Below are positions 33,201-47,596 of a stretch of 64,000 bases of DNA, one piece after another. The first letter of the stretch is position 1, and each line of letters starts with the position of its first letter. The translations under genes and the position numbers were made by a program. Source of the DNA: Candidatus Sumerlaeales bacterium (GTDB taxonomy: Bacteria; Sumerlaeota; Sumerlaeia; Sumerlaeales; Sumerlaeaceae); NCBI GenBank assembly GCA_036675025.1, contig JAKFFN010000101.1:3975-67974 (forward strand). The letters run 5' to 3'. Below the pieces are notes generated by a model. The model saw only the letters and a program-made list of their open reading frames with translations, was not told the DNA's origin and did not search any database.

Positions 33201-34480
33201 GGGTGATCCTTAATAATGTCGTCAAGGATGTCGTAAACTTCCGGGGCTTCACGCTCCATCATCTTCTTGGCGGCCTTGATCGTGTTCACATAGCCGCGCG
33301 CTTCAAGCTCACGGATAATGAACGGATCGAACAGTTCCAGGGCCATCTTCTTTGGCAGACCGCACTGGTTAAAGTTCAACTCGGGACCAACCACGATTAC
33401 GGAACGGCCGGAGTAGTCAACGCGCTTACCGAGCAGGTTCTGACGGAACCGGCCCTGCTTGCCCTTCAGCATGTCGCTGAGCGACTTGAGCGGACGGTTG
33501 TTGTGGCCTTTGGTCGGGCGCGTACGGCGGCTGTTATCAAACAGCGCGTCGACGGCTTCCTGCAACATGCGCTTTTCGTTGCGCAGGATGACCTCAGGAG
33601 CTTTCAGTTCCATCAGCTTCTTCAGACGGTTGTTACGGTTGATAACACGGCGGTAAAGGTCGTTAAGATCAGAAGTCGCAAAACGGCCACCATCAAGGTG
33701 AACCAGCGGACGCAGTTCCGGCGGCAGAACCGGCAGAACTTCCATCACCATCCACTCAGGGTTGTTATCGGAGCCGCGGAAAGCCTCCACAACCTTCAGG
33801 CGCTTAATGATCTTGTTACGGCGCTGGGCGCTGGTGGCCTGGCGCATTTCGATAGCCAGCCGGGTAGCCAGTTCCTCGATGTCAATCTTCCGAAGCATTT
33901 CGCGGACAGCTTCCGCACCAATGCGCAGGTCAATCTTGTCACCGTAGACTTCGCGGTACTTGCGCACCTCGTCGTCCGTCAGGATCTGCTTTTCCTTCAG
34001 CGGAGAATCACCTGGGTTCACCACGATGAAGTTCTGGAAGTAAATAACCTTACCCAGGTCCTTCACCGAAATGTCGAGCAGGCTGGCGATACGGCTGGAT
34101 GTGCCCTTGTAGAACCAGATATGGCAGACGGGAGCAGCCAGTTTGATATGACCCATGCGCGTACGGCGCACTTTGCTCTCGATAACTTCCACACCGCAGC
34201 GATCGCAAACGATGCCCTTATACTTGATACGCTTATACTTGCCGCAGGCGCATTCCCAGTCCTTGGTCGGGCCGAAGATACGTTCGCAGAACAGGCCGTC
34301 TTTTTCCGGCTTAAAGGTACGATAGTTAATGGTTTCCGGCTTCTTGACTTCACCGAAGCTGGAGAGGTCCATGTCGTCAAAACGCGCAGTGCTCAGGCCA
34401 ATGCGGCGCTCAGCAGCACGGCTGTTACGGCGCGACCACGCAAGGATGCGGTCCGGAGAGGCAATGGTGATTCGAGCCAC
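30293..34480 (-). CDS. rpoC: DNA-directed RNA polymerase subunit beta'
   Basis: [30 protein letters not shown], the NADFDGD catalytic motif and all conserved beta' blocks. Start ambiguous: the track uses GTG at 34480 (see findings). Confidence 0.95.
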
Positions 34481-34810
34481 AGCATGCAGGGCGTTGAGGT
34501 CAACTTCTTCATCACGCTCGGTGCCCAGCGGGATCGAGCGATAGCGCTTTACCGGACCTTCGTCGTATGTACGTACGCCTTCAAATGCCAGTACCTCACG
34601 CGGAGTCTTCGACTCACGCTTGGTGGTACGGGCCTTTGCAGTACGTGTCTTTGCCGCTTTAGGTGCTGCTACTTCTACGTCAGCAGCTTCAGCTTTGGAT
34701 GCCTTCTTGGTAGCGATGGTAGTATCCTGCCTTTCCGGGTCGCTTATATCTTAAAACTGGTTTCGGTCATTGAGGGTTAAAGAGGGAGAGGAAACTGCAA
34801 GCCTGGCGGC

Positions 34811-37800
34811 TTACAGCTCCTCATCCTCGAAGTCGTCTCCGCCACGCTCTGCAAAGCTCACGTCTTCTTCCACGCCGCTCAGCAGTGAGTCGTAGGGGCT
34901 TTCGCCTTCATCCTCGTCTAGTATCGATTCATCTTCTGTAAGGAGTTCCATGTTAAGGCCAAGGGCCTGCAGCTCTTTCACAAGAACGTTGAAGCTCTCC
35001 GGAACGCCCGGCTTCAGGTGATTTTCACCCTTGATGATGGACTCATAGATCTTCGTACGGCCCTGAACGTCATCAGACTTAACCGTCAGAAGTTCCTGCA
35101 GCGTATAAGCTGCACCGTAGGCCTCAAGGGCCCACACTTCCATCTCACCGAAGCGCTGACCACCGAACTGCGCCTTACCACCCAGCGGCTGCTGGGTAAC
35201 CAGCGAGTACGGACCAATCGAACGAGCATGCATCTTGTCGTCGACCAGGTGAGCCAGCTTCAGGATGTACATAACACCCACAGTCACCAGGCGGTCAAAG
35301 GGTTCACCCGTCGCACCGTCAAACAGACGAACCTGTCCGGTCGGGTTAACATCCAGCAGCTTCTCTTCGTCAGAAAGACTGGAGAACTTGCGCTTGTCGC
35401 CCTTCTGCTTCATGATGTGCTCACGGGCACGAATCAGTTCCGCTTCAATCTGCGCTTCCTCGGCACCGTCGAATACCGGCGTCGCGTAAGACACGCCCAG
35501 GGCAATAGCCGCCCAGCCAAGGTGTGTTTCCAGAAGCTGACCAACGTTCATTCGCGAAGGAACACCCAGCGGGTTCAGCACGATGTCAACAGGTGTGCCA
35601 TCAACCGTGTACGGCATATCTTCCATCGGCATGATCTTGGCCACAATACCCTTGTTGCCGTGACGTCCGGCCATCTTGTCGCCAACCTGGAGTTTACGTT
35701 TTACCGCCACGTAAACCTTCACCAGTTTGATAACGCCCGGAGGCAGCTCGTCGCCCGTCTTGATACGGTCGACCTTGTTGCGTGCAACGTCGTCAATCTC
35801 GGTAACGCGAACAGAGTGCTTCTGGTAAAGACGCTTAACATCAGCGCCCGCCTGACCGTCCACAGGCAGCATGCCCGTGCGCAGGCTGCGCTTTACGTAG
35901 TTAACCGCCGACTCTGTAACCTTCTGGCCCGGCTTCAGTTCCACCTGGCCGGTTTCAAAGTTAATCACCGGCTTCTCGATGGTCTTGAGCAGTTCCTTCA
36001 GGTTCTCCGTAAACTCGATCTCGACATTCTGCAGCTCAACATCACGTTCCTTCTCGATGCTTTCGATGCGGATCTTGTCCTCACGGTCGCTCTTGGTTCC
36101 ACGTTCCTTGCGGCTGAACGCCTTGATATCCACAACGGTGCCATAGGTGCCGGGCGGCACCTTCAGCGAAGCGTCGCGTACGTCGCCGGCCTTTTCACCA
36201 AAGATCGCGCGCAGAAGCTTTTCTTCCGCCGTCAGCTCGGTCTCACCCTTAGGCGTAACCTTACCCACCAGGATGTCACCGGGGATAACTTCAGTTCCGA
36301 TAAGAACATGACCATTTTCATCCAGCTTGGCCAGGGCCTCTTCGCTTACGTTCGGGATGTCGCGGGTAATCTCTTCCTTACCCAGCTTCGTATCCCGGGC
36401 ATCCACTTCAAACTCTTCAATGTGGATCGACGTAAATACGTCTTCCTTCACCACACGCTCAGAAATGATGATAGCATCTTCGAAGTTATAGCCGCCGAAA
36501 GGCATGAAAGCCACACGCAGGTTCTGACCAACCGCCAGTTCGCCCTGGTCGATACCCGGACCATCAGCAATAACCTCATTCATATCAACCTTCTGGCCCG
36601 CCGAAACAATTGGCTTCTGGTTGATACACGTGTTCTGGTTCGAGCGCTTGTACTTGGTCAGGCGATAAGTATCCAGCTGGCCGTTCTCGTTACGAAGAAC
36701 AATCTCCGTAGCCGTTACGCGCTCAACCGTACCCTCATTGCGGGCAACCACACAGGATCCGGAGTCAATGGCGCACTTGTGCTCGATACCGGTACCAATC
36801 GTGGGAGCGTCAGTGAACAGCAGGGGCACGCCCTGCCGCATCATGTTCGATCCCATCAAGGCGCGGTTGGCGTCGTCGTGCTCAAGGAACGGAATAAGCG
36901 CCGCGGAAACCGAAACCAGCTGCTTCGGGCTCACGTCCACGTAGTCTACTTCGTTAACAGTAACCTTCGGGAAGTCGCCCCGATGGCGACTCAGCACCGT
37001 CTCGCTCTTAAAGCTCTTGCCGTCTTCGGCCACCTCAGATGCCTGCGCCACGATGTACTCATCTTCCACGTCGGCCGTCAGGTACTGCGTAGCCTTCTGC
37101 ACCACGCCATCCTTAACCTTACGGTAAGGCGACTCAATGAAACCGAACTCATTAATGCGGGCATAGGAAGCCAGCGATGAGATAAGGCCGATGTTCGGGC
37201 CTTCCGGCGTTTCAATCGGGCAGATACGTCCATAGTGGGTGTGGTGAACGTCGCGGACTTCAAAGCCTGCGCGATCGCGGCTCAAACCACCCGGTCCCAA
37301 TGCGCTCAGACGACGCTTGTGCGTCAGCTCGCTCAGCGGGTTGGTCTGGTCCATAAACTGGCTGAGCTGGCTGCGACCAAAGAAGTCTTTAACCGAGCTA
37401 ACCAGCGGCTTTGCGTTGATCAGGTTATGAGGCAGCAGGTTTTCCAGGTCCACGATAGCCATACGCTCGCGGGCCGTCTTTTCCATTTCCGTCAGGCCCA
37501 GGCGAACCTGGTTCTGCAGAAGCTCACCCACGCTGCGCACGCGGCGGTTACCCAGGTGATCGATATCGTCGATGTCCAGGTCTTCCTCAGCAATCTTCGA
37601 AAGGTGCTTAACAATAGCAACCACGTCAGAAAGCTGCAGCGTGCGGCTGCTCTCGTCTTCCAGCTTGAAGCGGCGGCTGATCTTGTGGCGGCCTACCGCA
37701 CCCAGGTCATAGCGCTTCTCGTTGAAGAACATGTCGTCAAACAGGCGCCTTGCGCTCTGCAAGCTGATCGGGTTGCCCGGACGCATGCGCTTGAAGAACT

Positions 37801-38941
37801 CGATGAGGCTCTCTTCATAGGTGCGCACCTTGTCTTTCGACATCGTGCTCATTACTACGTTAGGCTCTTCTTCGTTAACTTCAACCAGGTGGATCTTGCG
37901 CACACCGGCCTTGCCGAACTTGCGCAGCTGCGCCGTCGTGATCTTCTCAAACGTATCAGCCAGGATTTCACCCGTGCCCTGGTCCACAACATCGCGGCCC
38001 AGGATGCGGCCGATCAGATGCTCATAACCGATAGCCACGTTCAGGTGAACTTCCTTGATGCCGTGGCTCTTCAGCGCTTCCGTAGCCTTCTTCGTTACCT
38101 TGGCGCCCTTCTGCACCAGCAGCTTGCCGGTTTCAGGGTCCAGCACTTCTTCAATAAACTCATTGCCCAGGAACTTCTCAACAAGGTCTGTTACCTTAGA
38201 GGCACCCTTGGAAAAGTCATCCAGCGCAACTTCCTTCGTAGCAAAAAACTCAGATACGATCTGTTCGTCGTCCATCAGGCCGAAGCAGCGCATAAACGTG
38301 GTTGCCGGCAGCTTGCGCTTACGGTCAACCATTACATACATAACGTTGTTAATATCGACTTCGAACTCTACCCACGCGCCGCGATAAGGAATAACGCGCG
38401 CGCTGAACAGCGTCTTGCCGTTCGGGTGAATCGATGACGAAAAGCTTACGCCCGGGGAACGATGCAGCTGGGAAACGATAACGCGCTCGGCGCCGTTCAC
38501 AATGAACGTACCCTGCTCAGTCATCAGGGGAATTTCCCCCATGTACGTTTCCTGCTCTTTAATGTCTTTAATGTCGGTTTCGTTGGTTTCGATATTCGTC
38601 TCGCGCACGATCAGCTGCAGCTTAACCTTCAGCGGCGCAGCAAACGTCATCCCACGGTCGATACACTCTTTCTCAGAGTATTTCGGCGCACCAAACGAGT
38701 ACTCCACAAACTCAAGCGTGGAAGGCGTGCTTGCGCTGGTTACAGGGAATACGCTGGTAAAGGCTTCCTGGAGCCCGGCATTCTCGCGGACATCCGGCGG
38801 AACGTTGAATTGCAGGAACTCTTCATAGCTCTTCTTCTGGGTTTCCAGGAGATAAGGCATCTCCATGGTTTCCGGGATCATCGCAAAATTGATACGGTAC
38901 GAGCTGTTAGGCTCACGGCGGCTACCATTTTTCGAAGCCAT
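34811..38941 (-). CDS. rpoB: DNA-directed RNA polymerase subunit beta
   Basis: 1376 aa with conserved beta blocks throughout. Acidic C-terminus DFEDEEL. Confidence 0.97.
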   Translation of the reverse strand: MASKNGSRREPNSSYRINFAMIPETMEMPYLLETQKKSYEEFLQFNVPPDVRENAGLQEAFTSVFPVTSASTPSTLEFVEYSFGAPKYSEKECIDRGMTFAAPLKVKLQLIVRETNIETNETDIKDIKEQETYMGEIPLMTEQGTFIVNGAERVIVSQLHRSPGVSFSSSIHPNGKTLFSARVIPYRGAWVEFEVDINNVMYVMVDRKRKLPATTFMRCFGLMDDEQIVSEFFATKEVALDDFSKGASKVTDLVEKFLGNEFIEEVLDPETGKLLVQKGAKVTKKATEALKSHGIKEVHLNVAIGYEHLIGRILGRDVVDQGTGEILADTFEKITTAQLRKFGKAGVRKIHLVEVNEEEPNVVMSTMSKDKVRTYEESLIEFFKRMRPGNPISLQSARRLFDDMFFNEKRYDLGAVGRHKISRRFKLEDESSRTLQLSDVVAIVKHLSKIAEEDLDIDDIDHLGNRRVRSVGELLQNQVRLGLTEMEKTARERMAIVDLENLLPHNLINAKPLVSSVKDFFGRSQLSQFMDQTNPLSELTHKRRLSALGPGGLSRDRAGFEVRDVHHTHYGRICPIETPEGPNIGLISSLASYARINEFGFIESPYRKVKDGVVQKATQYLTADVEDEYIVAQASEVAEDGKSFKSETVLSRHRGDFPKVTVNEVDYVDVSPKQLVSVSAALIPFLEHDDANRALMGSNMMRQGVPLLFTDAPTIGTGIEHKCAIDSGSCVVARNEGTVERVTATEIVLRNENGQLDTYRLTKYKRSNQNTCINQKPIVSAGQKVDMNEVIADGPGIDQGELAVGQNLRVAFMPFGGYNFEDAIIISERVVKEDVFTSIHIEEFEVDARDTKLGKEEITRDIPNVSEEALAKLDENGHVLIGTEVIPGDILVGKVTPKGETELTAEEKLLRAIFGEKAGDVRDASLKVPPGTYGTVVDIKAFSRKERGTKSDREDKIRIESIEKERDVELQNVEIEFTENLKELLKTIEKPVINFETGQVELKPGQKVTESAVNYVKRSLRTGMLPVDGQAGADVKRLYQKHSVRVTEIDDVARNKVDRIKTGDELPPGVIKLVKVYVAVKRKLQVGDKMAGRHGNKGIVAKIMPMEDMPYTVDGTPVDIVLNPLGVPSRMNVGQLLETHLGWAAIALGVSYATPVFDGAEEAQIEAELIRAREHIMKQKGDKRKFSSLSDEEKLLDVNPTGQVRLFDGATGEPFDRLVTVGVMYILKLAHLVDDKMHARSIGPYSLVTQQPLGGKAQFGGQRFGEMEVWALEAYGAAYTLQELLTVKSDDVQGRTKIYESIIKGENHLKPGVPESFNVLVKELQALGLNMELLTEDESILDEDEGESPYDSLLSGVEEDVSFAERGGDDFEDEEL

Positions 38942-39354
38942 ATTAAGACAGATTCCTCCTTGGCCGCTCCATCAGGAGTCCGGCACGGGCGAAGCAGGTT
39001 TTGGCAAAGGGTCCCGGGCACGCGCCATCCACAACGCTCACGCGCATAGACGCAAATCCTCCAAGGCACACGGGTTCCAAAGCAAGTAATCCTACCCCAG
39101 CCAGGCTTCCCATATTCTCAACAAAATTCGGGCCAACCGGGAGATGAAAGGCATCTCCCCTATGGAGTGGTGTTAGCCCTACCCTCCCCATCGACGAATG
39201 CAAGCATTTTTCTAACGGGGTCCGTCACCTTCTGCATCCAAGCTGCCCAGCCCTGCACTTGCGACCCTTGATACCGTGGCGAACTCTGGAGTAACTTGCT
39301 CCAGGCGCGAAACACGCAAAAGCTGTCGGCTGCGTCTTTCCTTGATTTCGAAAC

Positions 39355-39383
39355 TTGACAATTCCCCCTGCCTTGTTAAGTTT
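39355..39383 (+). promoter_or_regulatory. candidate sigma70-type promoter for the beta-helix gene
   Basis: TTGACA at 39355-39360. A weak -10-like TAAGTT ~16-17 nt downstream. In a 565-bp divergent region between rpoB and the beta-helix gene. Confidence 0.25.
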
Positions 39384-39507
39384 CTTTTGGTGGCCCGGAG
39401 CCCTCAGTTGCGACTCTGCAAAGACATCAAGAGACAGCCTCATGCTGAGACGCACAAGATTCAAATCTTTTGTTAGCAAATATCAAGCAAGTCAAAAGGA
39501 GTTCAGC

Positions 39508-40449
39508 ATGAAGCACATCATCATCGCGGTCTTACTGGCGTTTCCTGCAGGACAATCCTGGTCAGGCTCCCTTACTCCGCCTGGTCCTCCTGCACCTACA
39601 ATGAAGCCGCTCGACGACATAGAACCGCGCCGGCCCATTCGACTAGCTGATCTCCCCTTGTCGATAAACAGTTCGGGCAGCTTCTACCTGGCAGAAAACA
39701 TTAACTTTGCTACCCCCGGAGTAGTTGCCATATCTGTAAACGCTCCGGTTGTTACTATTGATCTGAATGGGTTTACCTTGAGCGGCCCGGGATCAAACAC
39801 TGGTGCAAGTGGCTTCGGCATCTCCGTAAATGCAGCCGACAAGCTCGTGGTTAAAAACGGTACCATTCAAAACTGGCGTGGAAATGCCATCTTCGCTTTT
39901 CCCGCCCTGGACTGCACAATTGACAACGTCACGGTTCAGCGGAATGGGCAGCACGGTATCTTTCTTACGACGGGGACGATAACAAACTCTACGGTTATCC
40001 GCAATGGTGACAATGGAATCTTGCAGGTTAATGGCAGCGCCATAGTCAAAAACAGCATCTGCTCTGATAACAGGCTTACCGGGATATCCTCTTCCAAAGG
40101 GAACATAATCATAGAGGATAACATCTGCAATGGCAATGGAGCAGGCGGCATCCTGGCTTCAGAGGCAAGCGGACGCATAATTGGCAATACCTGCACAGGC
40201 AACAATGACGGCCTACTGCTAGAAGGTTCTCAAAGCTATGTTGATGGTAACAGCGTCTATAATAATACCATGAACGGAATACGAAGCTATACGTTTATCT
40301 TCAAAGATGATCACTCCGTTGCCGTGAGAAACACAGCAGCAGGAAACGGCACAAACTACTCCTTCTCAACAACAACCAAATCTGGTCCTATCGTGACCAC
40401 CAACGGTGTTATCAGCAGTACAAATCCCTGGGCAAACTTTGTCCACTAA
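39508..40449 (+). CDS. secreted right-handed parallel beta-helix repeat protein (pectin-lyase fold, NosD-like PbH1 repeats)
   Basis: ATG after AAAAGGAG. Signal MKHIIIAVLLAFPAGQSWSGS. Repeated GNxCxGN/NGxxG turns (NICNGNGAGGIL, GNTCTGNNDGLLLEG). Confidence 0.75.
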   Translation: MKHIIIAVLLAFPAGQSWSGSLTPPGPPAPTMKPLDDIEPRRPIRLADLPLSINSSGSFYLAENINFATPGVVAISVNAPVVTIDLNGFTLSGPGSNTGASGFGISVNAADKLVVKNGTIQNWRGNAIFAFPALDCTIDNVTVQRNGQHGIFLTTGTITNSTVIRNGDNGILQVNGSAIVKNSICSDNRLTGISSSKGNIIIEDNICNGNGAGGILASEASGRIIGNTCTGNNDGLLLEGSQSYVDGNSVYNNTMNGIRSYTFIFKDDHSVAVRNTAAGNGTNYSFSTTTKSGPIVTTNGVISSTNPWANFVH

Positions 40450-40463
40450 AGAGGGTATCTGGA

Positions 40464-41003
40464 ATGAAACCGTCCACCCTTTTGGCAAGCCTGTCTTTCA
40501 CAGTCTTATTTCCATTACTCACCACAACTGCGGCATACGCCACTACCAACATCGATCCGGCATTTGTCGGCAAGAAGTTTGGCTGGAGCGAAAACGGCGG
40601 GTGGACGAATCTACAGGGCGACCTCGCCAATGGTGTGCATGTGGGCCTGGCGCACCTACAAGGCTTCGCGTGGCATGAGAACTTTGGCTGGATCAATTTC
40701 GGCAGTGGTAACCTGGCAGAAGAACAGCAGTACACGAATGCTACGCGCGATGACTTCGGGGTCAACATTGACACTGAGGGCAAGCTCTTCGGCTTTGCCT
40801 GGGGTGAAAACATCGGCTGGATATCTTTCGATACTCTCGCCGCAAGCGGAGCCCGGGTGTCTATAGTTTCCGCTACTGGCCGCTTCACCGGTCATGCCTG
40901 GTCGGAAAATGTAGGCTGGATTTCGTTCGATACAGTTGATCCTCTCCATGTTGCCCATACCCTCAGCGATACTGCCGCGAACGACTGGAACCTGTTCGAG
41001 TAG
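40464..41003 (+). CDS. secreted Trp-rich repeat protein (4 x G[FH]AWxENxGWIxF repeats), family unknown
   Basis: Signal peptide. Four tandem ~30-aa repeats (FGWSENGGWTNL, GFAWHENFGWINFG, GFAWGENIGWISFD, GHAWSENVGWISFD). Only 14 nt downstream of the beta-helix gene. Confidence 0.6.
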   Translation: MKPSTLLASLSFTVLFPLLTTTAAYATTNIDPAFVGKKFGWSENGGWTNLQGDLANGVHVGLAHLQGFAWHENFGWINFGSGNLAEEQQYTNATRDDFGVNIDTEGKLFGFAWGENIGWISFDTLAASGARVSIVSATGRFTGHAWSENVGWISFDTVDPLHVAHTLSDTAANDWNLFE

Positions 41004-41377
41004 AAGCTGGCCACACCTTAAAATAAGGGGACATCCAAGATAAGTATTAATGGTTAGGAGACAAGGAGATCTCCTACGGCGTAAGGTTGTGACTCCCCCC
41101 CCCCGTTAAATTTGTTCCCGATCTACCAAGTTGTGATTGGCTTTTTGTCTTCTGGTCTTAGTGGTGACAAGCTGACAGGCTTGCAGCCAGACAGGAAACT
41201 TAAATCTCCGCCGTACCCGCTTCTGTCAGCCCGGTCGGAAAATTCCTCATTGCCAAGGTGGACGACATTAACCTCTCCGGTGATCCAAACCCGTCAGACA
41301 ACGTGCTGGTTTCGGGCCGTTGTCTTAAGACGACCTGTCAAGCAAACCCTCACAATGCAAAGGCAGTACGGTTGAAA

Positions 41378-41665
41378 GCGACAACTAGGATAGCCCAAAT
41401 CAAAGTAACCGATCCGCCAGGATCGAACACCGCCGCCTTGGGTAGACGCCACCCTTCCGCCCCTGTCGCGAAGCGACAACTAAGATAGCCCAGGACAAGG
41501 TGAACGATCCGCCAGGATCGGACGCCGCCGTCCTGGGTAGACGCCACCCTTCCGCCCCCTGTCGCGAAGCGACAACTAAGATAGCCCAGGACAAGGTGAA
41601 CGATCCGCCAGGATCGGACGCCGCCGTCCTGGGTAGACGCCTCCTCCCGCCCCAGCCCCGGCAGG
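41378..41665. repeat. three tandem copies of a ~97-bp unit with nested inverted repeats (candidate structured RNA or REP-like element)
   Basis: Unit GCGACAactaagatagCCCAGGACaaggtgaacgatccgccaggatcggacgccgccGTCCTGGGtagacgccacccttccgcccccTGTCGCgaa. Copies B and C are identical for 73 nt and copy A is ~85% identical. Ends with a GCCCC-ggca-GGGGC hairpin. Confidence 0.75.
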
Positions 41666-41728
41666 GGCGATACCCATTCTTCCGCCAACACATAATCATC
41701 TTAGCCTCAAAATTCTCATTGCACAAGC

Positions 41729-43168
41729 GTGTCAGACCTAAAACTATGGTCGTCTTACCATTGTGTAATCTGGACTCTTTGCGTGGCTGAAAAAATCTCC
41801 ACATCCATTCCCGGCTTCATAGACCTGCTTCTGGATGCCGTCTGTATCGTAGACGAAGAAGGCCGATATGTCTACGTCAGTGCGGCCTACGAGCAGATTT
41901 TTGGTTACACGCCCGAGGAAATCATTGGCCGCAGGATGATCGATCTGGTGGCGCCGGAAGACCGCGAACGAACATTGGCTGCCGCCAATAACGTAATGGC
42001 TGGCAATTCCCATCTCCATTTTGAAAACCGTTACATCCGGAAAGACGGCCGCGTCGTCAACATCATGTGGTCAGCCCGCTGGTCCCAGGCAGACCGCCTT
42101 CGCATAGCTGTCGCGCGGGACATCACCGACCTTAAACACGCGGAGGCATTACAGTCTGCCACCTACGCCATTTCCGAAGCCGCACACACGGCCGAAGATC
42201 TTCCCGCGCTTTTCAAACAGGTCCAGGCAGTTCTCGCCCGTCTTCTCCCGGCTGACAACTTTGCTGTCGGGTTACTCGACGAAACCACCGGTAACCTCTC
42301 TCTCAAACACCTCGACACTAACAGTTTCCCGGCAGCGTATGCCGACATCGCCGCTTGTCGTACCCTATGCACATACGTAGCAGAAACCCACCTTCCGCTG
42401 CTTCTGACCCCACACGATAAAGATCACCCCATGTACCCGCTCCTGTCGCACCACGGCGAAGCGTGCTGGCTTGGCGTCCCACTTACGACCCACAACAAGA
42501 CTATTGGCGCCCTTGGCCTGATGAGCATTTCGGGAGACTGTCATTATACCGCCCGGCACAGAGACCTGCTCCAGTACGTGAGCACCCAGGTAGCCACCGC
42601 TATAGAACGCAAACAGCTTCACGAGCGGCTGCAATATCTTGCCCAGTATGATTCGCTTACAGGCCTTCCCAACCGGGCACTTCTGCATGATCGCCTGGAC
42701 CACGCCCTGGCTCTCGCCCGCAGGAATCACGGGAAACTGGCAGTTCTGTTTGTTGATCTGGATCAATTTAAATCTGTAAACGATCAGCTTGGCCATGCCG
42801 AAGGCGATGCGCTTTTGCAGGAAATTGCTTTGCGCCTGAAAAAGTGCGTCCGCGAATCTGACACCGTCGCACGCCTTAGCGGTGACGAATTTGTCATTAT
42901 ACTTGAGAGCCTGAAGGCGACCTCCATTTCTGACGATGCCGGTTCCAGTTCCACTGTTGGGGCTAATAAAATCATCTCGAAACTCAAAACATCAATCAAT
43001 GAACCCATCGTACTAGGCAGTCACACCATCAAGATGACGGCAAGTATCGGCCTGGCCCGGTTCCCCGAACATGGCGATACTCCAAATCAACTGCTAAAGC
43101 ACGCCGACAAGGCCATGTACCAGGCAAAGCGGCAACACCGGATTATCTACTCCGATCCGATTCATTAA
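41729..43168 (+). CDS. PAS-GAF-GGDEF diguanylate cyclase-like protein (SGDEF active-site variant)
   Basis: PAS (VCIVDEEGRYVYVSAAYEQIFGYTPEEIIGRRMIDLV). GGDEF domain with RLSGDEF in place of GG[DE]EF. Start uncertain. Confidence 0.8.
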   Translation: MSDLKLWSSYHCVIWTLCVAEKISTSIPGFIDLLLDAVCIVDEEGRYVYVSAAYEQIFGYTPEEIIGRRMIDLVAPEDRERTLAAANNVMAGNSHLHFENRYIRKDGRVVNIMWSARWSQADRLRIAVARDITDLKHAEALQSATYAISEAAHTAEDLPALFKQVQAVLARLLPADNFAVGLLDETTGNLSLKHLDTNSFPAAYADIAACRTLCTYVAETHLPLLLTPHDKDHPMYPLLSHHGEACWLGVPLTTHNKTIGALGLMSISGDCHYTARHRDLLQYVSTQVATAIERKQLHERLQYLAQYDSLTGLPNRALLHDRLDHALALARRNHGKLAVLFVDLDQFKSVNDQLGHAEGDALLQEIALRLKKCVRESDTVARLSGDEFVIILESLKATSISDDAGSSSTVGANKIISKLKTSINEPIVLGSHTIKMTASIGLARFPEHGDTPNQLLKHADKAMYQAKRQHRIIYSDPIH

Positions 43169-43176
43169 CCCACGCT

Positions 43177-43880
43177 TCTTCAGGCAACAAAAGCCCTCCC
43201 CGAAAACACACCCTTAGCCACCCCTTCCCAGGCAACAAAAGCCCCCCGAAAACACACCCTTATGGAGTGCTGGTGGCTTGCCACCGCTATGGAAAACCTG
43301 CCACCACGCGACACTGCGAAACCACCCGCCACCCCAGCAAGGCGCAATGCGCGCCCTGCGTCTGTCCTAAAAGGAACCAACCCATAACCGCCCCAGAAGA
43401 ACATACATGTTCGCCGTTCCCGAAGGAAACCAACCCATAATAGCCCCGGGTGAAACGGAAGGACCTCCGTTCCCGAAGGGAACCAACCCATAATAGCCCC
43501 GGGTGAAACCCGGGGTTTCGGATACCCCATAAACTGACTCCGAAGGAGTCCAACACTAAAGCGCCAAAAAGAAGTTTAACCCATCCCGACTTGTCCGACT
43601 TTTACACGCCTCCGCCCCCCGAAAACACACCCTTATGGAGTGCTGGTGGCTTGCCACCGCTATGGAAAACCTGCCACCACGCGACACTGCGAAACCACCC
43701 GCCACCCCAGCGAGGCGCAATGCGCGCCCTGCGTCTGTCCTAAAGGAACCAAACCATAACCGCCATAGAAGAACATACATGTTCGCCATTCCCGAAGGGA
43801 ACCAAACCATAATAGCCCCGGGTGAAACCCGGGTTTCGGATATCCCATAACCTGACTCCGAAGGAGTCGAACACAAACCG
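43177..43880. repeat. nested macro-repeat: two ~270-320-bp direct copies (period ~371 bp, ~95% identical) with internal ~50-bp sub-repeats and conserved hairpins
   Basis: CCCCGAAAACACACCCTTA occurs 3 times. ttcccgaagg(g)aaccaa(c/a)ccataatagccccgggtgaaac occurs 3 times. Hairpins CCCCGGG-tgaaa-CCCGGGG+TTTCGG and GACTCC-gaa-GGAGTC are conserved in both copies. Confidence 0.8.
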
Positions 43881-44133
43881 CGATTATTCCAGGAACCGTT
43901 GGTCTCATTCGATGCCAACGCTATCCGGTGACGCGCAACGCCTGTACCTTTGCCGAGCGTCGCTATGGCAATCCAGAATCTGTTTTTGCGCCTTTTGTGC
44001 TTTTTTGCGGCTAAGATTAAGGGTCGTTAAGCGTCCCTAAGGGTCATTGCGGGAATTCCCCTGGCGGTTTCGTCATGCTCAAATGCGTGCATTCGTTAAA
44101 AAACCGTACCAGCCAAAAGGAGAAACGCCCGCC

Positions 44134-45402
44134 ATGCTCACCTTGCACCCCATTTCCGCCAGGCACTTCGATAGTTATGTACTTAATACATCGACCCGCC
44201 GACTTGATGTTGTTAGACTTACGGAATTAACCTCAAGTTTTTTTCGCCCCTGTGGAAAACTTAAAAAACTTTTTTCGAAATTAAATCGCGTTCTTACAAA
44301 CGTAACCACTGTAAAATCAACGCTGGAACCCGTTATAAATCCGTTTTGGCCCACATTCGCAACACTAACAAAATCAACGCTGAAGGCCGTCAAAAATCCG
44401 AATAATTCTTACAAAGCATATTTCAAAGATTTTCCACAACTTCCACAACTTCCCATTGATTGCTCTGCCATCGTAAAGGTCTATAGCTCGGTGCATCAGC
44501 CAAACTTCCATAGCTTCTGCTGGCGACAGGATCATCTCCGATTTGAACTCCAATCCGACGATCCTGCCGTAGTCTCCCGCGTCCGCGAAGTTTTACGCTT
44601 CTGGAACGCCGAAGCACCACCCGTGTCGGGAGACGAAACACAGTCCTTGCGTCCATCCCTGGTATCCACTGTAACTCTTGCCTCCGATGGCTATCACTTT
44701 ACCGGAAGCCAGGCAACGGAACCTGTTAAGCTGAAAGACATTGCCGCCGTAATCCGGGCCGCTGAGACCGATGCCGCCATTGCAATTCTTAACCAGACTG
44801 ATCACTTTCTCACAGTCCACGGCGCCCTGCTCGCGCGGGATGATGATGCGGTTTTAGTTGTCGGTCCGTCCCAGTCTGGCAAGTCTACCACCTCCTGCGC
44901 TCTTTGGGCCGCCGGCTGGCAGCTGCTGGCGGATGACGTTACGATCCTTCACCCGACCGATGCCACCGCCTCTCCCCTGCTGCGCCGCGTAAGTCTGCGC
45001 CACCCGAGCCGCCAGCTTCTCGGCGATGCGTTCTGGCAGCGCATGACGGCAGCAAGCACCTGCGACCCGACCCCGGAAGGTTACGTGTTCCACCCCGATG
45101 AGATCGAGGGAATATCCCGCGCCCGCAGCGCGCGCCTGCGTGCCATCATATTCCTGCGTCGCCTGGGGGCCAATGATCCCGGACCGGGCCGCCTCTTACC
45201 TGTTATTGAAGCGCAGGCGCTGCTCGCCCTCTCGCCCTACACCAATGTGATCCGCCACGGAGGCATGGGCGAAGCGATGACGCGCCTGGCGCCGCTGCTG
45301 AACCAGGTGCCCTGCTACGATATGGGCCGTGGCTCGCTGCCCGACATGGTGGAAACCATCGAGACCCTGCTTACGCCGGAGGCTGCCTTTGAGCGCCTGT
45401 AG
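44134..45402 (+). CDS. HprK-related P-loop kinase (RiPP/lasso-type tailoring kinase family) with low-GC N-terminal extension
   Basis: VLVVGPSQSGKSTTSCALWAAGWQLLADD resembles the HprK/P Walker-A-to-ADD block. It lacks the HprK RGLG signature. ATG 44134 has AAAAGGAG SD. Alternative GTG start at 44491 gives ~303 aa. The track TTG at 44047 is rejected. Confidence 0.6.
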   Translation: MLTLHPISARHFDSYVLNTSTRRLDVVRLTELTSSFFRPCGKLKKLFSKLNRVLTNVTTVKSTLEPVINPFWPTFATLTKSTLKAVKNPNNSYKAYFKDFPQLPQLPIDCSAIVKVYSSVHQPNFHSFCWRQDHLRFELQSDDPAVVSRVREVLRFWNAEAPPVSGDETQSLRPSLVSTVTLASDGYHFTGSQATEPVKLKDIAAVIRAAETDAAIAILNQTDHFLTVHGALLARDDDAVLVVGPSQSGKSTTSCALWAAGWQLLADDVTILHPTDATASPLLRRVSLRHPSRQLLGDAFWQRMTAASTCDPTPEGYVFHPDEIEGISRARSARLRAIIFLRRLGANDPGPGRLLPVIEAQALLALSPYTNVIRHGGMGEAMTRLAPLLNQVPCYDMGRGSLPDMVETIETLLTPEAAFERL

Positions 45403-45403
45403 C

Positions 45404-47596
45404 ATGACCCGCCCGGCGGTAGCACCCACCATCGCCATTCTCGTGACCCGCCGGTGCAACATGACCTGCAGCCACTGCAGCGTGGAGAGCGCGCCGCGGG
45501 TGAACACACCGGATCCCACCGAAGAAGAACTCTACCGCCTGATCCGCGAATCGGCTGCAGCCGGCGTCCACGCTGTGCAGTTTACCGGCGGCGAACCCAT
45601 GATGCGCCAGAAACTGGTTTTGCAACTCATGGAAAAAGCTCACCGCCTCGGCCTCGCCAGCGGCCTGACCACCAACGGCTTCTGGGGCAAGAACCCGCGC
45701 ACCGCCCGGACGACGCTGCGCCACATGATTCGCCACGGCCTGCAGTACATGACCGTCAGCTATGACCGTTACCATGCGGAGTTCATGGGCCCGCAGCCCA
45801 TCCTGAACATCGCATCCATCGCCCGCGACCTCGGTTTCTTCTTTAACGTGAACGTGACCCGCACGCTCCACGATGAGAACCTGGACGAGTACGCCCGCCT
45901 CTTTGGCAATCTTCCCAATGTGCGCATGCGTCTTTACGATGTGCAGCCCGTCGGACGTGCCCGCAACTTTGATCTGCCAAATCTCCGCGCTGAAACCGAA
46001 GGTTTTTGTAATGCCGCAGCGCAGGCCACCTTCACTGAAGATGGGCGGATGATCGCGTGCAATGGCCCGGCTTATTTTGACTCAGCTGAATCGCCCCGGC
46101 ACATTGGAGACACCCGCAGCGAGTCCGTTGCTGATCTGCTCCGCCGTCACTGGGAAGATCCCATCCTGGATACCATCCGCACCTTTGGCCCTGCCGGCCT
46201 GCGCGATGAACTGAAAAAAGAGGAGCAGTTTGCTCCAGCCTTCGACCGTCGCTTCGCCGGACAGTGCGACCTGTGCCAATGCATTACCACGAACCCGGCA
46301 ATGGTCAGCCACCTGCGCAGCCGCCTGGCTGACACCCGCCACCAGGCCATGCGCGTGGCAAAGTGGAGCCTGATAAATGCCGCCCGCGCCTCCGGCGAAC
46401 TCACCCGCGACCACGCGAATGGACCTGGCATCTGCAGCGTCTTCTATGATAGAACTACCACCGGCCAGTGGCCTGCTCATGCGGAAAAGCTGTTTGGCCG
46501 CGCCGATATCGATTGGGACCATATCGCCCACTACCTGGCCGGGTGTGGCCTGGCTAATGCGCTTTCCACGGCAGCAGGTCAGCAGGAGCTGGCACGCTGG
46601 GCCCCCGGTTATTTTACCGAGACACTACAGAAGCGCGCGATGCGGGATGCTCTGCGGGAACTCAGCCATCGCGAAACATTCGCTAAGCTGCACGAGGCGC
46701 TGAGCGCCCTGAACCTGCGAGGGGTGCTGCTAAAAGGGGCCGCGCTCTACCTGGGTGAGAAGGCCGCAAACATGAACCCGCTGCGCATCCCGGGTGATAT
46801 TGATCTATGGATCGAAAATCCCGCGGCAGCCGCGAAACTGCGCCGTTATCTGATCGAAGATGGCTTCAAGGGCGACCCCGATGCGCCGCGAACCGGACCC
46901 CATCACCTGGCGCCTATTGTCTGGAGAAACTCTCTCGTCGAAATCCATACCGGCGTGATGCCTTCTTTCTGGGGACTGCCGGAAAAGCAGATGTCGGCGG
47001 ATGCCCGGCCACTCCCCGGATGGTCCCCTTTCTTTACGCTTTCGCCGGAAGACATGCTACTCCACGAAGTCATCCACAGCACCACTCACCTGTACAGTTT
47101 CGGCCTGAAGCTGGCGATCGATATTTTCCGGATACAGCGCCTGGTTGCAGGTGACAACTCGCTCTCTGCAGCCATTGATTGGCAGACGGTAATTAGTCGC
47201 GCCAATGCCACCCATTGCCCCATGGCCTTCTGGATTCCGCTGGTGGCGCTCAGCCGCGGCCTGGCAGGCCAGCTGCCGGTTCCGCCAGAAGTGCTGGACC
47301 AGGCTCCGCATGGAGAACGTTTCCGCAGGCTGGGCCTTGTGGCGTATAAACGGCTCTTCACAGCCACCGACGATGCCGATAAGATGAACCCGTTTACTCG
47401 AAACGGCATCTTCCTGATGCTGCACAACGGCACGATCAGTCGCCTGAGGTATTTAGCAGAACTGACGCGCGACGACGCGGCCGAATCGCGCCGCACCCAC
47501 CTGGGCAGCTCCGGCGGCCAGGGTTGGCGCAACCTGAAAACTCACCTGCGCCACGCCTGGCTAGACCTGCGCACCTACCGCCGGGCTATCAAGTAA
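45404..47596 (+). CDS. radical SAM / SPASM-like domain protein fused to PF14907-type nucleotidyltransferase
   Basis: ATG 1 nt after the kinase stop. CNMTCSHC radical-SAM cluster motif. Cys-rich auxiliary region (C-x16-C, CDLCQC). The C-terminal ~350 aa resemble the uncharacterised nucleotidyltransferase family found in lasso-peptide clusters (GDIDLWI..). Confidence 0.75.
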   Translation: MTRPAVAPTIAILVTRRCNMTCSHCSVESAPRVNTPDPTEEELYRLIRESAAAGVHAVQFTGGEPMMRQKLVLQLMEKAHRLGLASGLTTNGFWGKNPRTARTTLRHMIRHGLQYMTVSYDRYHAEFMGPQPILNIASIARDLGFFFNVNVTRTLHDENLDEYARLFGNLPNVRMRLYDVQPVGRARNFDLPNLRAETEGFCNAAAQATFTEDGRMIACNGPAYFDSAESPRHIGDTRSESVADLLRRHWEDPILDTIRTFGPAGLRDELKKEEQFAPAFDRRFAGQCDLCQCITTNPAMVSHLRSRLADTRHQAMRVAKWSLINAARASGELTRDHANGPGICSVFYDRTTTGQWPAHAEKLFGRADIDWDHIAHYLAGCGLANALSTAAGQQELARWAPGYFTETLQKRAMRDALRELSHRETFAKLHEALSALNLRGVLLKGAALYLGEKAANMNPLRIPGDIDLWIENPAAAAKLRRYLIEDGFKGDPDAPRTGPHHLAPIVWRNSLVEIHTGVMPSFWGLPEKQMSADARPLPGWSPFFTLSPEDMLLHEVIHSTTHLYSFGLKLAIDIFRIQRLVAGDNSLSAAIDWQTVISRANATHCPMAFWIPLVALSRGLAGQLPVPPEVLDQAPHGERFRRLGLVAYKRLFTATDDADKMNPFTRNGIFLMLHNGTISRLRYLAELTRDDAAESRRTHLGSSGGQGWRNLKTHLRHAWLDLRTYRRAIK

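Follow-up and report, generated by a model that had tools for sequence, protein, structure and literature searches.

A low-GC orphan open reading frame in frame with an HprK-like kinase gene of a Candidatus Sumerlaeales bacterium: a probable incidental 5' extension

The kinase locus and its neighbourhood

The window analysed here, that is the whole stretch of 64,000 nucleotides from a Candidatus Sumerlaeales bacterium, contains an annotated ORF of 422 aa (44134-45402), recorded in NCBI as the same protein under P0001, whose 5' part is a stop-free segment of low GC content and whose 3' part is the core of an HprK-like kinase. Upstream lie a PAS-GAF-GGDEF gene and a repeat-rich non-coding stretch, which holds two units in tandem, at 43241-43560 and 43614-43877, each of about 270-320 nt and ~95% identical to one another, while downstream the kinase is followed by a YydG-like radical SAM (rSAM) enzyme fused to an NTP_transf_5 domain, the likely start of which (ATG 45404) is placed 1 nt past the kinase stop. 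The features of the locus are collected in Table 1.

Table 1. Coordinates of the features at the kinase locus, as positions of the window.
Feature	Position	Strand	Details
PAS-GAF-GGDEF gene	41729..43168	+	L001 orthologue has 47% identity and ends 82 bp before the kinase start
Repeat-rich non-coding stretch	43169..44133	.	Between the GGDEF gene and the orphan ORF
Shine-Dalgarno-like AAGGAG and ATG 44134	44117..44136	+	AAGGAG at 44117-44122, 11-nt spacer; opens the annotated 422-aa ORF and the orphan ORF
Low-GC (40.6%) stop-free segment	44134..44490	+	119 codons, in frame with the kinase; from composition and stop counts
Part common to P0017	44134..44415	+	Frame 0 at 44134-44346; frame +2 at 44361-44396; frame 0 at 44401-44412
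Direct repeat, copy 1	44313..44343	+	AAAATCAACGCTGGAACCCGTTATAAATCCG
Direct repeat, copy 2	44370..44400	+	84% identical to copy 1, 57 nt downstream
9-nt tandem repeat TTCCACAAC, x2.4	44432..44453	+	Encodes PQLPQLP
HprK-like (ScmC / HprK_rel_A-type) P-loop kinase core	44491..45402	+	303 aa from GTG 44491; from family match and alignment
Radical SAM (YydG-like) fused to NTP_transf_5	45404..47596	+	Conserved kinase partner

The assignment of the kinase is based on profile and structure comparisons. In particular, the best NCBIfam match of the ORF is TIGR04352 (HprK-related kinase A), found over residues 217-412 with an E value of 2e-23 and 82.7 bits against a cut-off of 200, and limited to profile positions 88-280; TIGR04249 (ScmC) reaches 28.4 bits against a cut-off of 125, Hpr_kinase_C matches weakly, and PF27840 (ScmC) is listed for P0001 in a precomputed table. 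Since the scores are under the family cut-offs, the kinase is best regarded as a superfamily relative and not as an equivalog. The P-loop GPSQSGKST (Walker A) is invariant in 15 sequences, and an AlphaFold (AF2) model of the 422-aa ORF, built on 15 sequences, gives the kinase core (residues 125-417) a pLDDT above 90, with PEPCK (E 1e-7) and HprK/P (E 1e-5) retrieved by Foldseek. A limited literature search on the names HPr-rel-A, ScmC and PF27840 found no relevant paper.

The homologues of the kinase also bear on where it starts. Indeed, all 14 of them (45-64% identity) have lengths of 260-331 aa, their alignment to the ORF, limited to its C-terminal ~68%, begins at about residue 120-128, and the segment is absent from 14/14 protein homologues and from 16/16 genomic loci. 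In the alignment of kinase homologues that the initial annotation had proposed as a check, the N-terminal ~120 aa are conserved in 0/14 homologues and a uniform homologous domain, which would have refuted its reading, is not seen. The number of residues that precede the first conserved Trp is 8-18 in the homologues and 10 when counted from GTG 44491, which is the only canonical start codon where the homologues start and is preceded by a weak AAGG only, 11 nt upstream. From this alignment, GTG 44491 is the most likely start of the conserved kinase.

Synteny with relatives places the segment within a larger block that these relatives lack. In L001 the order of genes is a GGDEF gene (47% identity), an 82-bp gap, a 297-aa kinase (60%) and the rSAM/NTP_transf_5 gene (68%). 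In L021, whose RpoB is 91% identical to that of the window, stretches 34238-39136 and 44752-47586 of the window have collinear counterparts, about 5.3 kb of the window are represented by about 400 nt, and the kinase has no N-terminal extension. It follows that the low-GC stretch forms the end of a block specific to this lineage, which also includes the two tandem repeat units (43241-43877), and the segment itself, equally lineage-specific, is foreign in composition. AT-richer DNA directly upstream of the kinase is also present in other relatives (0.42 in L003 and 0.42-0.48 in L002). As for marks of a known type of mobile element, the window has no tRNA genes that could represent an integration site, and no terminal inverted repeats of the MITE type are found at the ends of the element, the only inverted pairs being a 20-nt one that is internal (80% complementarity) and a 13-nt one located within the 5' end of the kinase.

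Composition and coding signals of the segment

The segment (357 bp) has a GC content of 40.6% vs 55.0% for the 64-kb window, with minima of 37-39% in 150-nt windows at 44150-44400, and it includes the lowest 300-nt GC value of the whole 64 kb (0.387). Patches of 37-45% GC are also present in other intergenic regions of the same genome. The kinase frame (+0) has 0 stops over the segment while the other five frames have 8, 8, 6, 3 and 9, and the GC content at third codon positions (GC3) is 0.37, as compared with 0.68 for the kinase core and 0.71 for the rSAM gene. These values agree with the initial annotation as to the drop to roughly 40% GC, the kinase frame as the only open one and the AT3-rich codons, while the flanks, which it had put at 58-60%, are only roughly so, measuring 49-55% upstream and 56-69% in the kinase core.

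The lack of stops is beyond what composition predicts, with a probability of 0.002 in mononucleotide shuffles and of 0.004 in dinucleotide shuffles, in which 5.1 stops are expected. The start signals are also gene-like. Indeed, AAGGAG is found before real genes of the window, and the site at 44117-44122 is one of 4 in the window that precede the start codon of an ORF of at least 80 codons. The other signals are of a different kind. The base composition of the segment is independent of codon position (chi-square 7.0, p 0.32), the chi-square value being below that of 99.3% of same-size windows from real genes (median 32), and G occupies 18.5% of first codon positions vs a median of 37% in the genes of the window. 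In parallel, the codon-usage score is -0.07, as compared with 0.33+-0.14 for the genes of the window and an intergenic mean of -0.32+-0.22, thus under 99.8% of gene windows and somewhat above the intergenic mean; frame 0 is the best-scoring of the six frames by this measure, at about 1.2 sd over the intergenic mean. Given the codon-position, codon-usage and GC results, the missing stops and the Shine-Dalgarno sequence with its ATG are the only gene-like properties of the segment: of the marks of bona fide coding sequence, an open frame beyond chance and a ribosome-binding site are present, and periodicity and a G-rich first position are lacking. In composition and periodicity, the segment is non-genic.

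Neither the predicted structure nor database searches point to a known domain or element. AF2 gives residues 1-120 a pLDDT of 28-57, which is weak evidence as the alignment has no depth there, and draws a strand-strand-helix-helix pattern in the N-terminal segment at a pLDDT below 50. The segment has no significant match in Pfam, NCBIfam, PHROGs, PADLOC or PDB, no DNA match in plasmids and only chance DNA matches of 50 nt in phages (E 0.03); blastn-short against the window and L001-L020 returns the self match alone, and blastp against six-frame translations returns nothing. A structured RNA was considered and rejected, as no Rfam family is matched by the segment and no excess RNA folding energy is found (fold z +0.58). 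No sigma-70-like promoter was found either, with a consensus that may not match the promoter type of the host.

Repeats inside the segment

The two copies of the 31-nt direct repeat are identical at 26/31 positions, with a spacing of 57 nt, while the best direct repeat in 500 dinucleotide shuffles reaches 22/31. They encode the peptide modules TVKSTLEPVINP and TKSTLKAVKNP, which include Ser/Thr and, in the window copy, share one reading frame. Both modules and the PQLPQLP motif had been reported in the initial annotation and are all found in the translation; the direct repeats that it described are likewise present, with the second copy 3 nt away from where it had been placed (44370-44400 as measured). 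A 15-mer related to the 9-nt tandem repeat is found at 44503-44517, inside the kinase 5' end and in another frame. The 31-nt motif has no further site in the window with up to 3 mismatches allowed, and the degenerate DNA pattern of the repeat has no exact match in JGI metagenomes.

A single free-standing relative

Searches of 5.8 billion clustered proteins, together with an exhaustive HMMER scan of 1.84 billion representatives, returned a single true relative of the segment, P0017, which is a stand-alone ORF of 120 aa on a different NCBI contig and is not attached to a kinase. A repeat protein of 2000 aa (P0018, E 5.6e-4) was rejected as a relative, its score being a summed low-complexity match. 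No additional copy came from a profile of both copies run against the protein collection, nor were further copies found via peptide patterns in viral contigs and JGI metagenomes.

The two copies share their first 9 residues (MLTLHPISA), from which they can be aligned over 71 residues at 69% identity. Past residue 71, P0017 reads NSNEINRGGRQK, which matches frame +2 of the window (NTNKINAEGRQK, 44361-44396), that is the second DNA repeat, and after this repeat it is back in frame 0 (NDSY vs NNSY in the window). Module 1 of P0017 is thus read in frame 0 as ISTLEAVKNN, while the DNA of module 2 is read in frame +2 as NEINRGGRQK / EINRGGRQKQ. Since the second module is in another frame in P0017, the repeat is conserved as DNA and not as a peptide module. 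The C-terminus of P0017 (RWQATSSP) corresponds to a reading, in reverse, of the repeat unit that neighbours the segment in the window (43263-43286 and 43636-43659), an inverted copy of which abuts the P0017 ORF. Therefore, the element exists independently of the kinase and travels with the same repeat family.

Despite the two frame changes, P0017 stays open for 120 codons, and the open frames in the window and in P0017 suggest selection, at least against stops. The 22 replacements over the first 71 residues have a mean BLOSUM62 score, taken at the protein level, of -0.86, to be compared with -0.57+-0.33 in a neutral simulation and with -0.15 to -0.45 in kinase orthologues. The replacements are thus no milder than random mutation would give, the score being inside the neutral range and lower than that of the orthologues, which is a weak test given the few replacements.

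Precursor and PqqD genes in relatives

In lasso systems, HPr-kinase homologues phosphorylate the C-terminal Ser of the precursor and nucleotidyltransferases decorate (glycosylate) that phosphate (PMC8498205), and because these enzyme classes tailor lasso precursors, the earlier expectation of a peptide substrate at this locus was reasonable. Indeed, some distant relatives of the kinase, from Sumerlaeaceae and Gemmatimonadota MAGs (L005-L010), have small ORFs before the kinase gene that encode a leader of the form Y-E-x-P-x-[IV]-E...DLEREVxYAG followed by a short core, and in L006-L009 a PqqD-family gene is located between the precursor ORFs and the kinase; the PqqD-like protein of these distant relatives gives weak lasso_PqqD matches.

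The segment resembles neither family. With an HMM built from 7 precursors, which scores its own training sequences (L005-L010) at E 1e-19 to 1e-27, no match is obtained in the window (six-frame translation), L001-L004 or L021-L023, and on this basis the segment was rejected as the remnant of a precursor. No PqqD gene is present between 43169 and 44490, and hhalign of the N-terminal segment against the PqqD profile gives a probability of 0.3%, so that a remnant of PqqD was rejected as well. Four close relatives are likewise without PqqD, and none of them has an extension of the kinase. An ORF like the segment is absent in all examined relatives of the two-gene module. A multi-core RiPP would keep its modules as peptides in related copies, and module 2 of P0017 is out of frame; a borosin-like fusion would have its substrate in common with the homologues of the enzyme, and here the segment is found in 0/14 homologues and 0/16 loci.

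Interpretation and alternatives

Collectively, these data are best explained by an AT-rich, repeat-associated orphan element that probably sits upstream of the kinase-rSAM module as an incidental in-frame 5' extension, and not as a substrate or leader. The element would be the last part, on the kinase side, of a repeat-rich block that came to lie between the upstream genes and the kinase-rSAM/NTP_transf_5 module by insertion, a step that would have separated the kinase-rSAM operon from the GGDEF gene, and would bring its own Shine-Dalgarno sequence, ATG and stop-free ORF. Gene callers give a protein of 422 aa because the orphan ORF is in frame with the kinase and runs on into it, the in-frame junction itself being presumably incidental. 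The kinase would then be made from GTG 44491, or would bear an unstructured basic N-terminal tail that is tolerated and not functional, and the AT-rich element may now provide the kinase-rSAM operon with its promoter or 5' leader. The horizontally inserted N-terminal extension that the initial annotation offered as its second choice fits this picture, the segment being lineage-specific, foreign in composition, located at the end of a repeat block and present elsewhere as a free-standing copy.

The stop-free frame, the Shine-Dalgarno sequence with its ATG and the 120 open codons of P0017 count against an incidental extension, as do the weak AAGG before GTG 44491 and the codon-usage score of frame 0, the highest of the six. 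Judged from the reading frames, the missing stops may leave some limited room for the translation of a tolerated or young N-terminal tail.

The same properties could be read as signs of function. If translated from ATG 44134, the extension might be a functional, recently acquired domain of the kinase, with a possible role in docking or regulation and in replacing a PqqD/RRE partner; the stop-free frame, the strong Shine-Dalgarno sequence at ATG 44134, the weak one at GTG 44491 and the strand-strand-helix-helix pattern (pLDDT <50) are consistent with this, as is the lack, in the clade of the window, of the PqqD gene found before the kinase in L006-L009. However, the hhalign probability for PqqD is 0.3%, the four close relatives that lack PqqD have no extension in its place, coding periodicity is absent and the replacements look neutral, and the frame is not conserved in P0017, which has no kinase attached, thus making a functional domain unlikely. 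The segment could instead be purely non-coding regulatory DNA, either a promoter or a 5' leader, in which the 31-nt repeats would be a pair of operator-like sites and the open frame a coincidence. A GC content like that of other intergenic patches, the lack of periodicity, the direct repeats conserved as DNA in both copies and the AT-richer DNA just upstream of the kinase in L003 and L002 would all suit such a role, but an open frame with a p value of 0.002-0.004 counts against coincidence, no sigma-70-like promoter or notable fold (z +0.58) accompanies it, the window has no further site of the repeat motif within 3 mismatches, and the degenerate pattern of the repeat has no exact match in JGI metagenomes; we consider purely regulatory DNA distinctly unlikely. 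A more elaborate proposal combines mobility with function, in that a young mobile small gene, with at least two copies located beside the same repeat units, would have been captured as a translated N-terminal module of a RiPP-type kinase, either as a substrate whose Ser/Thr-containing repeat modules are modified in cis by the kinase and the rSAM enzyme or as a replacement for the PqqD recognition element, and we rate it as very improbable.

The multi-core precursor or leader with KSTLxxVxNP modules, fused to or directly preceding its modifying kinase, was the reading that the initial annotation preferred. It draws on the phosphorylation of precursor Ser by lasso kinases and the decoration of the phosphate by nucleotidyltransferases (PMC8498205), on a partner enzyme that is a YydG-like peptide rSAM, on the precursor genes found upstream of the kinase in distant relatives and on modules that contain Ser/Thr and are mutually in frame in the window copy. 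It is not supported by any of the present tests, as the segment is found in no kinase homologue, the real precursor and PqqD families are different, the YExPxxE...DLEREVxYAG HMM finds nothing in the window, L001-L004 or L021-L023, no such ORF is present in relatives of the two-gene module, module 2 is in the other frame in P0017, and composition and periodicity are non-genic. Moreover, no stop codon separates the segment from the kinase and a tailoring kinase with a substrate at its N-terminus is without known precedent, so that a precursor, fused or preceding, appears highly improbable. An artefact of assembly or sequencing, either a homopolymer indel or a chimeric join at the repeats of this metagenome-type contig, might hide a stop, and the true arrangement would then be a small ORF followed by the kinase. 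In its favour, the segment has T7, A6 and T6 homopolymer runs and is flanked by repeats, P0017 differs by two compensating frame changes, and a TAA in frame +2 about 90 nt before GTG 44491 would yield an ORF of ~89 aa; the 422-aa protein does stand on the NCBI record (P0001), though from the same assembly, and we hold an artefact to be extremely improbable.

The orphan 5' extension, which we favour, matters mainly for annotation and is a curiosity rather than a discovery. Since the protein is probably a 303-aa kinase with an orphan 5' extension, the 422-aa record should serve neither as evidence of a RiPP precursor fused to its enzyme nor as the basis for a novel arrangement of domains. Of more interest than the segment itself is the uncharacterised system of the kinase and the YydG-like rSAM/NTP_transf_5 enzyme, as distant relatives of this pair have a precursor family and PqqD while neither is found nearby in the clade of the window, which raises the question of the substrate. 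Were the segment nevertheless translated and modified, which is unlikely on the evidence presented here, it would be, as far as we are aware, the first case of a tailoring kinase that carries a substrate as an N-terminal fusion.

Comparison with known systems

The closest relatives by family are the HprK_rel_A/ScmC kinases of the HPr-rel-A and SynChlorMet cassettes, with which the window kinase shares a core (~125-417) with a P-loop and the PEPCK/HprK/P fold, as well as the pairing with an NTP_transf_5 domain and a radical SAM enzyme of the peptide type. Unlike them, it scores 82.7 bits vs 200 and has no adjacent PqqD gene, and the window has a fused rSAM-nucleotidyltransferase and a 119-aa AT-rich N-terminal extension that is unique to this genome. 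A second comparison is with the lasso tailoring pair represented by the paeninodin kinase, an HPr-kinase homologue, and the pseudomycoidin nucleotidyltransferase PsmN, since the enzyme classes are the same as in the window pair and both a leader peptide of the YxxP type and a PqqD-like protein are encoded next to the distant relatives of the window kinase. In contrast to this pair, the genes examined in the window include no lasso cyclase or protease and the gene tables of the relatives' loci list none, the window yielded no precursor, and the function of the window pair is predicted from sequence.

The only well-known precedent for a substrate fused to its own modifying enzyme is provided by the borosins, such as omphalotin with its enzyme OphMA, in which the core forms the C-terminal part and is conserved along with the enzyme family. 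The extra segment of the window is instead N-terminal, missing in every homologue and without conservation at the peptide level, and we know of no described tailoring kinase with a substrate at its N-terminus. The segment is also comparable to over-extended gene starts and ORFan 5' extensions created by the insertion of intergenic or repeat DNA, in which a called ORF is made longer by an in-frame ATG further upstream, in DNA that is non-homologous and non-genic in composition, and the alignment of homologues points to an internal start. What sets it apart from these is a run of 119 stop-free AT-rich codons (p about 0.004), a strong Shine-Dalgarno sequence and a second copy that forms an ORF of its own.

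Divergence of the kinase/rSAM module from a close relative

The window and L021, a relative's locus with conserved flanking genes, encode RpoB proteins that are 91% identical (81% nt for rpoB), and the approximately 5.3 kb that precede the HprK-like kinase core in the window correspond there to about 400 nt (L021:4913-5310). This extra block encodes a beta-helix and a GW-repeat protein and also includes the GGDEF gene as well as repeats. Between the two loci, the kinase proteins share only 45% identity, and the aligned DNA of the kinase and of the YydG-like radical SAM (rSAM)/NTP_transf_5 gene about 67%, as compared with 81% nt for rpoB; thus the module together with its upstream region is evolving, or being exchanged, much faster than the core genome.

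A 15-mer (AACTTCCATAGCTTC) within the 5' end of the kinase gene is 87% identical to the 9-nt tandem repeat region directly upstream (44429-44452), the frames of the two being different, and may be a trace of slippage or microhomology where inserted DNA meets the kinase gene. At the other end of the kinase gene, the longest ORF for rSAM/NTP_transf_5 starts from GTG 45329, with a 74-nt overlap. An alternative start, ATG 45404, lies 1 nt past the kinase stop, and its product is collinear with the orthologue in L001, another locus with conserved flanking genes (730 vs 732 aa, 68% identity), which suggests translational coupling of the two genes.

Repeats and ORFs upstream of the segment

Within the two tandem units upstream of the low-GC segment there is a 53-nt sub-repeat (GGAACCAACCCATAAYAGCCCC...), along with several GC hairpins whose loops are of the GAA type. 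Their + strand RNA folds better than shuffles (z -3.3), while the - strand does not (z -1.1), and Rfam gave no family match except a weak one to Acido-Lenti-1 (19 bits, E 0.32). A copy of the unit also adjoins the ORF of P0017, the stand-alone relative of the segment on another contig. The units may represent either a repeat element specific to the genome or a structured RNA of unknown kind.

A separate tandem repeat with a 96-nt unit closely precedes the PAS-GAF-GGDEF gene, which starts at 41729; the repeat appears by eye to be rich in hairpins and has no match in Rfam. The N-terminus encoded by the GW-motif ORF resembles a signal peptide, its sequence contains a motif of the type GW(S/H)EN(x)GWI(N/S)F four times, and Pfam gives no match.

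Coordinates of the features in the window and in loci of relatives
Feature	Location	Remarks
Extra block	window 39137-44490	
GW-motif ORF	window 40464-41003	179 aa
96-nt tandem repeat	window 41376-41653	2.9 copies, 91% identity
Tandem unit pair	window 43241-43560 and 43614-43877	about 270-320 nt each, about 95% identical
15-mer	window 44503-44517	
Precursor-like ORF(s)	L005:3566-3796	
Precursor-like ORFs	L006:3345-3650	two copies; PqqD-like gene between
Precursor-like ORF(s)	L007:3500-3655	PqqD-like gene between
Precursor-like ORF(s)	L008:3489-3725	PqqD-like gene between
Precursor-like ORF(s)	L009:3516-3671	PqqD-like gene between
Precursor-like ORF(s)	L010:3712-3981	

Precursor-like ORFs in distant relatives

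Upstream of the HprK-like kinase, the loci L005-L010 of distant relatives carry small precursor-like ORFs that form a conserved family (Y-E-x-P-x-[IV]-E-x-V...DLEREVxYAG, then a 5-12 aa core). In L006-L009 a PqqD-like gene separates these ORFs from the kinase. Downstream of the kinase, the YydG-like rSAM/NTP_transf_5 gene is confirmed in L007 only, and L005 carries an oxidoreductase and a glycosyltransferase in its place. A literature search by family names returned no relevant paper, and the ORFs with their kinase look like an uncharacterised RiPP class.
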